A DNA stretch of 64,000 nt, taken from the NCBI RefSeq assembly GCF_003334785.1, contig NZ_QOWV01000002.1. One strand, given 5' to 3'. Below the pieces are notes generated by a model. It was not told the DNA's origin. It ran no database searches and saw only the letters and a program-made list of their open reading frames with translations. Position 1 is the stretch's first letter, and the number at the start of each line of letters is the position of its first letter. A program made the translations under genes and the position numbers. Below are positions 16,092 through 16,247 of this stretch, piece by piece. This DNA comes from Escherichia coli. GTDB taxonomy: Bacteria; Pseudomonadota; Gammaproteobacteria; Enterobacterales; Enterobacteriaceae.

Positions 16092-16247
16092 ATGATCCGT
16101 CTACAGCATGACAAACAAAAACAGATGCGTTACGGAACTTTACAAAAACGAGACACTCTAACCCTTTGCTTGCTCAAATTGCAGCTAATGGAGTGGCGTT
16201 TCGATAGCGCGTGGAAATTTGGTTTGGGGAGACTTTACCTCGGATGA
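16092..16247 (+). CDS. rseD: small leader ORF translationally coupled to rpoE
   Basis: 51-codon ORF MIRLQHDKQKQMRYGTLQKRDTLTLCSCSKQLMEWRFDSAWKFGLGRLYLG; its TGA stop overlaps the rpoE ATG (ATGA); in-frame stop 6 nt upstream of the ATG. Below the 60-aa track cutoff. Confidence 0.55.
   Translation: MIRLQHDKQKQMRYGTLQKRDTLTLCLLKLQLMEWRFDSAWKFGLGRLYLG
16134..16161 (+). promoter_or_regulatory. sigma-E (sigma24)-dependent promoter of rpoE (autoregulated P2)
   Basis: GGAACTT -35 element, 16-nt spacer, TCTAA -10 element; matches the ECF sigma-E consensus. Confidence 0.8.

Follow-up and report, generated by a model that had tools for sequence, protein, structure and literature searches.

The closest described system is rseD itself. 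A 51-codon ORF (ORF51) is said to have been identified upstream of rpoE in E. coli and named rseD, and rpoE is reportedly translationally coupled to it; on loss of the coupling, rpoE translation reportedly falls by more than half. E. coli cannot live without sigma-E, the product of rpoE, but too much of it is toxic, and thus each layer that sets its level matters.

A second system is uof-fur, in which translation of the short ORF uof is said to promote translation of the downstream regulator fur. The sRNA RyhB controls uof, and we know of no sRNA control of rseD. Both uof and rseD are on the EcoCyc list of leader peptides, and neither is an attenuator. They differ in that uof is not known to have an internal promoter like the one in rseD. 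The leader peptides TrpL, HisL, LeuL and PheL belong to the same EcoCyc class and are likewise encoded by short ORFs in the 5' leader of an operon. However, rseD has no regulatory codon run, no intrinsic terminator and no alternative hairpins, and it overlaps the downstream start rather than preceding an attenuator. A terminator scan of 15800-16300 found no terminator-like site, which sets rseD apart from leaders of the attenuation type. The third system is idlP-iraD (Park et al. 2017, mBio, as summarised in PMC7652899). Like rseD, idlP is a short upstream ORF (uORF) coupled to the gene of a stress regulator, and CsrA acts on the same leader (PMC7652899). There, CsrA represses the uORF and hence iraD indirectly, whereas the CsrA sites at rpoE overlap the Shine-Dalgarno (SD) sequence and start codon of rpoE itself (PMC7652899). 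In addition, rpoE differs from iraD in having its main autoregulated promoter inside the uORF, which gives a large class of transcripts that lack the uORF start.

The best explanation of the locus described here, and one that we hold to be very probable, is that rseD is a leader ORF through which rpoE is translationally coupled on long transcripts, and that rpoE is initiated directly on the transcripts of the internal promoter, P6.

The rseD ORF and its overlap with rpoE

We analysed a stretch of 64,000 nucleotides of E. coli DNA, referred to as the window, and all positions are given in its coordinates. The region is laid out as is usual in E. coli: nadB (minus strand, 14214-15836) is followed by an intergenic region of 407 nt and then by rpoE, rseA, rseB, rseC and lepA, all on the plus strand. 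The rseD ORF is placed between nadB and rpoE, directly 5' of rpoE and on the same strand. Its translation is MIRLQHDKQKQMRYGTLQKRDTLTLCLLKLQLMEWRFDSAWKFGLGRLYLG.

16092-16247, plus strand: rseD, 51 sense codons, ATG-initiated, stop codon included
16244-16819, plus strand: rpoE (sigma-E) coding sequence, TIGR02939 RpoE match at 328.7 bits
16244-16247, plus strand: ATGA, in which the rseD TGA (16245-16247) overlaps the rpoE ATG (16244-16246)

The initial annotation had described a 51-codon ORF at 16092-16247 with its TGA overlapping the rpoE ATG, and had called it rseD. Every coordinate proved right against the sequence and the ORF list. The name is borne out by the RefSeq annotation of the ORF (rseD, "rpoE leader peptide RseD", WP_001303621.1), by the 100% DNA identity of 15837-16320 with E. 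coli K-12 MG1655, and by the match of the peptide to NCBIfam NF033697 leader_RseD (104.2 bits against a cut-off of 35 bits, E = 3.2e-30), in which residues 7-51 lie on profile positions 1-45. In E. coli, this ORF is known as rseD and forms the leader of the rseD-rpoE-rseA-rseB-rseC operon. Locus, length of 51 codons, ATGA overlap and operon are those of RseD/ORF51, and there is no difference between the two. The arrangement is already published and annotated, being present in the literature, RefSeq and EcoCyc. Thus there is no new biology in the feature itself, and the comparative results given below add context.

Within the species, the ORF is nearly constant. An exact-sequence look-up of RpoE returned 10 places, all E. 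coli-like, and a 51-aa gene was called at the rseD position in nine of these ten independent assemblies. Every one of the 5,426 complete E. coli genomes matches the 201 bases at 16060-16260 with 99% identity or more, and rseD is annotated in each of the 60 rows of these genomes that were sampled. A longer query of 484 bases (15837-16320) also matches all 5,426 genomes, though in 2,687 of them, about half, the identity is only 95-99%. Since identity stays at or above 99% over 16060-16260, variation in the nadB-rpoE intergenic region appears to be confined to its nadB-proximal half, upstream of the rseD block.

The initial annotation had also taken the ATGA for the classic arrangement of translational coupling. 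The overlap is there, but it does not serve as evidence for coupling. RpoE begins with Met-Ser, the serine being encoded by AGC, and an ATGA overlap is thereby forced. We found ATGA in nearly every gammaproteobacterial rpoE examined, including those of Vibrio, Aeromonas and Shewanella, in which the frame overlapping the rpoE start is open for only 0-5 codons. Since the ATGA is forced and is also found in taxa that have no upstream ORF, it is by itself no evidence of coupling. As judged from sequence, the stop/start overlap is necessary for a translationally coupled uORF and is not diagnostic of one.

An alternative start for rpoE was also considered. The mechanical ORF list extends rpoE to GTG 16211 (16211-16819, 202 aa). 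We rejected this start, because the RpoE model aligns from residue 1 of the product that begins at ATG 16244, and the MSEQ N-terminus is conserved.

Promoters and start codons within the leader

The elements that bear on transcription and on the start of rseD are the following.

16078-16083, plus strand: perfect -10 hexamer TATAAT in the block AGACTTATAATGA (16074-16086); candidate upstream promoter with a predicted +1 at about 16090-16092, at the rseD ATG
16125-16127, plus strand: in-frame ATG (Met12), which some Citrobacter RseD annotations take as their start; no SD, +0.7 kcal/mol
16134-16161, plus strand: sigma-E-dependent rpoE promoter P6 (formerly P2), with the -35 element GGAACTT at 16134-16140, a 16-nt spacer and the -10 element TCTAA at 16157-16161
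16188-16190, plus strand: in-frame ATG (Met33), which would give a 19-codon coupled ORF; no SD, +1.2 kcal/mol

The sigma-E promoter had been placed inside the ORF as GGAACTT-N16-TCTAA, and we confirm it there, across codons 15-24. The motif GGAACTT-N15-17-TCNAA has one match in the 64 kb window, where shuffles give an expectation of 0.06, and 26 of 31 Enterobacterales loci carry the motif 103-113 nt 5' of rpoE. From the end of the -10 element at 16161, the +1 of P6 would be at about 16167-16169, in codon 26 of rseD and 75 nt 3' of its ATG. This geometry supports the further claim that transcripts of the internal promoter lack the rseD start and that rpoE would consequently have two modes of initiation. 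P6 is the sigma-E autoregulated promoter of rpoE and was formerly named P2 (PMC6358824, PMC8595263). There are six rpoE promoters, among them P2 with sigma-54 and QseF, P3 with sigma-70 and RcsB, and P4 with sigma-S (PMC6358824, PMC5736990). The operon is written rseD-rpoE-rseA-rseB-rseC, with promoters placed either 5' of rseD or inside it (PMC8595263).

Two minor observations concern the P6 region. In one E. coli genome (P0004), RseD has 48 aa owing to a 3-codon deletion equivalent to about 16140-16150, and this would shorten the spacer of the sigma-E promoter by 9 nt. On the minus strand, GTAAA-N5-GTAAC at 16129-16143 overlaps the sigma-E -35 element, and we take it to resemble a CpxR box. 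RegulonDB places rseD in the CpxR regulon, and CpxR-P is listed as a repressor of rseABC.

The block AGACTTATAATGA is invariant in 16 of 16 aligned Enterobacteriaceae. A sigma-70 consensus scan of 15800-16300 in which both hexamers were required returned no promoter, and the TATAAT at 16078 has no recognisable -35 element. None of the in-frame ATGs of rseD (16092, 16125 and 16188) has SD complementarity; their best duplexes are at +0.4 to +1.2 kcal/mol, compared with a median of -2.6 kcal/mol over all ATG triplets in the window. Since the SD-less ATG of rseD lies at the predicted +1 of about 16090-16092, a leaderless rseD mRNA is possible. Translation of rseD has been validated by a chromosomal lacZ translational fusion, and PIRT-Seq picked it up as well (PMC12350097).

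The leader contains many short overlapping ORFs. The ATG inside TATAATG (16082) opens a 9-codon ORF (16082-16111) that ends in a second ATGA overlap at 16108-16111. From this second ATGA a frame of 17 codons runs as far as the TAA in the sigma-E -10 element, where it stops. In Citrobacter and in 'Enterobacter sp. Ag1', the uORF begins instead at the ATG that overlaps TATAATG.

The Met33 ATG at 16188 is the sole in-frame ATG on transcripts of the sigma-E promoter, and it lies about 20 nt 3' of the predicted P6 +1. This raises the possibility that these transcripts are coupled as well, by way of an ORF of 19 codons that shares its UGA with rseD, so that rpoE would have a single mode of initiation. 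The ATG is part of AUGGA (16188-16192), which resembles a CsrA site. As the first CsrA site of the leader, it would serve to repress the mini-ORF, in the manner of iraD, where CsrA acts via a coupled uORF (PMC7652899). ATG-initiated ORFs of 19-26 codons are found in this frame in several relatives (L004, L009, L025 and L029). However, the ATG has no SD. Escherichia and Citrobacter retain Met33, but Enterobacter and others have Leu, Val, Lys or Ile at this position. Moreover, according to the CsrA review, repression comes about because CsrA directly occludes the SD and start codon of rpoE (PMC7652899). We regard coupling from AUG 16188 as most improbable. Since P6 transcripts lack the rseD start, and the only in-frame AUG left on them is SD-less and unconserved, we favor direct initiation of rpoE at its own SD on these transcripts.

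The rpoE start region and the translation of rpoE

Around the rpoE start, the leader has the following elements.

16168-16175, plus strand: GCUUGCUC, conserved across Enterobacterales, where the sigma-E transcript is predicted to begin; it would form the 5' arm of an 8-bp helix
16190, 16213, 16228 and 16242 (within 16190-16244), plus strand: four GGA motifs, candidate CsrA sites; that at 16228 is in the rpoE SD and that at 16242 abuts the AUG
16222-16245, plus strand: predicted hairpin GUUUGGGG/CCUCGGAU, in which 16222-16229 (including part of the SD) pair with 16238-16245 (including the AU of the rpoE AUG)
16226-16231, plus strand: rpoE SD GGGGAG, 11-12 nt 5' of the ATG; its anti-SD duplex is at -8.5 kcal/mol
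16246-16253, plus strand: GAGCGAGC, 3' arm of the predicted 8-bp helix, comprising the G of the rpoE AUG and codons 2-3

The SD GGGGAG is invariant or nearly so across Enterobacteriaceae. CsrA has three sites in the rpoE leader, two of which are over the SD and the initiation codon (PMC7652899). The positions of the GGA motifs, taken here as motifs alone, agree with these three published sites.

Two structures are predicted to involve the rpoE start. The hairpin at 16222-16245 has an energy of -8.3 kcal/mol alone and is part of the minimum free energy (MFE) fold of both the short (sigma-E) and the long leader; its pairing is kept in 92.6% of cells. The GCUUGCUC/GAGCGAGC helix is a perfect duplex of 8 bp at -12.0 kcal/mol, and 99.5% of cells are paired. 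Over both elements, pairing potential is kept in 95.9% of cells among 27 Enterobacterales. For the sigma-E transcript, the predicted ensemble leaves the rpoE AUG unpaired with a probability of 0.09. We sought covariation in both helices and saw none, because both sides of the helices are nearly invariant. The fold energies of the whole leader were not better than those of shuffles (z = -0.4 and -0.8). The predicted structures are a plausible but unproven basis for coupling, in which ribosomes on rseD would cross GCUUGCUC and would end on the hairpin.

An Rfam scan of 15000-19500 returned no RNA family in the rpoE leader, its sole match being AsrC (RF02746, an antisense RNA of the rseC mRNA) on the minus strand at 18419-19250, with 507 bits against a gathering score of 111. 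This match spans rseC, the rseC-lepA spacer and the 5' end of lepA.

A stronger reading of these predictions would make rseD a promoter-specific translational switch. The ORF would begin at a leaderless AUG 16092 placed at the +1 of the TATAAT, and ribosomes passing through GCUUGCUC would melt its helix with rpoE codons 1-3, which on transcripts of the sigma-E promoter would keep the rpoE start masked and CsrA-dependent. If this were true, the choice of promoter would set both the amount of rpoE mRNA and the manner of its translation. This reading seems to us distinctly unlikely.

We return to the explanation given at the outset, that of coupling on long transcripts and direct initiation on P6 transcripts. 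The upstream promoters P1-P5 (sigma-54, sigma-70/RcsB and sigma-S), located 5' of 16092, would give transcripts that carry the whole of rseD. On these, ribosomes translating rseD would terminate at the UGA that overlaps the rpoE AUG, and initiation at rpoE would be raised. The route of coupling could be re-initiation, or it could be the melting of the predicted leader structure, in which the SD, AUG and first codons of rpoE are paired; the melting is our inference. Transcripts of P6 would begin near codon 26 without the rseD start, and on them rpoE would be initiated directly at its own strong, distantly spaced SD. The SD used in direct initiation would also be the place where CsrA binds and represses. 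With such an arrangement, stress-specific transcripts of the upstream promoters would be translated by coupling, and those of the sigma-E promoter would be translated directly and in a CsrA-sensitive manner.

Conservation of the ORF and selection on the peptide

Homologous proteins named RseD are found in Escherichia, Shigella and Citrobacter. These are also the genera that have a long ATG-initiated ORF which begins 5' of the sigma-E promoter and is related in sequence to E. coli RseD. A few other genera have ORFs of comparable length with an unrelated N-terminal sequence. In Enterobacter 35-44 codons are open and the starts vary, and in Siccibacter and some Pantoea the coupled frame is open for only 8-12 codons. 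A peptide search, word-based and of limited sensitivity, returned no Salmonella or Klebsiella RseD; the genome scan for rpoE loci covered the best 80 loci, and Salmonella was not among them. Since the full-length ORF is not conserved beyond Escherichia, Shigella, Citrobacter and a few scattered genera, relatives can dispense with the rseD arrangement.

The length of the ORF can also be set against chance. When the 407-nt region between nadB and rpoE was shuffled 20,000 times, 2.4% of the shuffles had an open frame that ended on ATGA and was 51 codons or longer. This would fit the reading that the rseD ORF is an evolutionary by-product, in which the promoters and the rpoE leader RNA are what is selected, one frame is by chance without stops in the Escherichia/Citrobacter lineage, and any coupling is a side effect of that lineage instead of a regulatory device that is maintained. 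An ATG-initiated ORF of at least 51 codons arose in only 0.6% of the same shuffles, which speaks against it. The universal and forced ATGA, the lack of an SD at every rseD start, and the variation of start, length and frame between genera, with a mere 7-12 codons in some relatives, would all fit a by-product. On the other side, in 23 of 31 Enterobacterales loci the coupled frame is longer than either of the other two. Summed over 22 loci, it extends 544 codons beyond the conserved P6 leader, compared with 336 +/- 72 codons for shuffles (P of about 0.0075, uncorrected for phylogeny). These counts suggest a modest tendency to keep the coupled frame open. In E. coli, coupling reportedly accounts for over half of rpoE translation, which likewise speaks against a by-product. 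The demonstrated translation of rseD (PMC12350097) also tells against a by-product. On balance, we consider this reading unlikely.

The conservation that does exist is found at the level of nucleotides. In the alignment, the conserved pieces are the AGACTTATAATGA block, an A-rich block with CGGAACTT, TCTAA, GCTTGCTC and the final ~60 nt of the leader. Indels of 1-2 nt change the rseD reading frame between genera. Variation at RseD residues 18-25 coincides exactly with the free positions of the promoter spacer. We looked for purifying selection on the amino acids in the last 14 codons of rseD and found no excess of synonymous or third-position change. Variable columns number 5/7/7 over the three codon positions, and the ratio of synonymous to non-synonymous changes is 3:21, compared with 2:23 and 3:23 in the off-frames. 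This absence of selection at the amino-acid level also speaks for the by-product reading.

The same data bear on whether RseD could be a small protein that acts in trans in the sigma-E pathway, for instance by modulating RpoE, RseA or CsrA, with the overlap serving mainly for stoichiometric co-expression. The C-terminal 18 residues appear conserved across Enterobacteriaceae, but this conservation is at the nucleotide level, since the changes beneath it are distributed as in the off-frames. Likewise, the 201-bp region shows 99% identity or more across the 5,426 E. coli genomes, though promoters, CsrA sites and leader RNA explain this equally well. The peptide is indeed made, as seen by lacZ fusion and PIRT-Seq (PMC12350097), and a CRISPRi screen has rseD among urine fitness genes, though CRISPRi there is polar on rpoE. 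Variation of residues 18-25 along the free promoter spacer and the frameshifting indels between genera argue against a function of the protein. So does the result of the domain and homology searches: the peptide has no Pfam or other domain, and the word-based search found no homologue beyond close relatives. Thus a trans-acting RseD is, in our view, very improbable.

The comparative evidence favours RseD as a cis-acting translation device over a conserved small protein. This is because the ATGA is not diagnostic, selection on the peptide was not detected, the starts are SD-less, and the ORF is labile beyond Escherichia and Citrobacter. We infer that it is probably the act of translating rseD that matters, rather than the peptide.

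One variant of the ORF differs at both of its ends. In a Shigella flexneri variant (P0003, equivalent to 16082-16250), RseD has 64 aa, with frameshifts at both ends; it starts at the equivalent of ATG 16082 and reads past the rpoE start.
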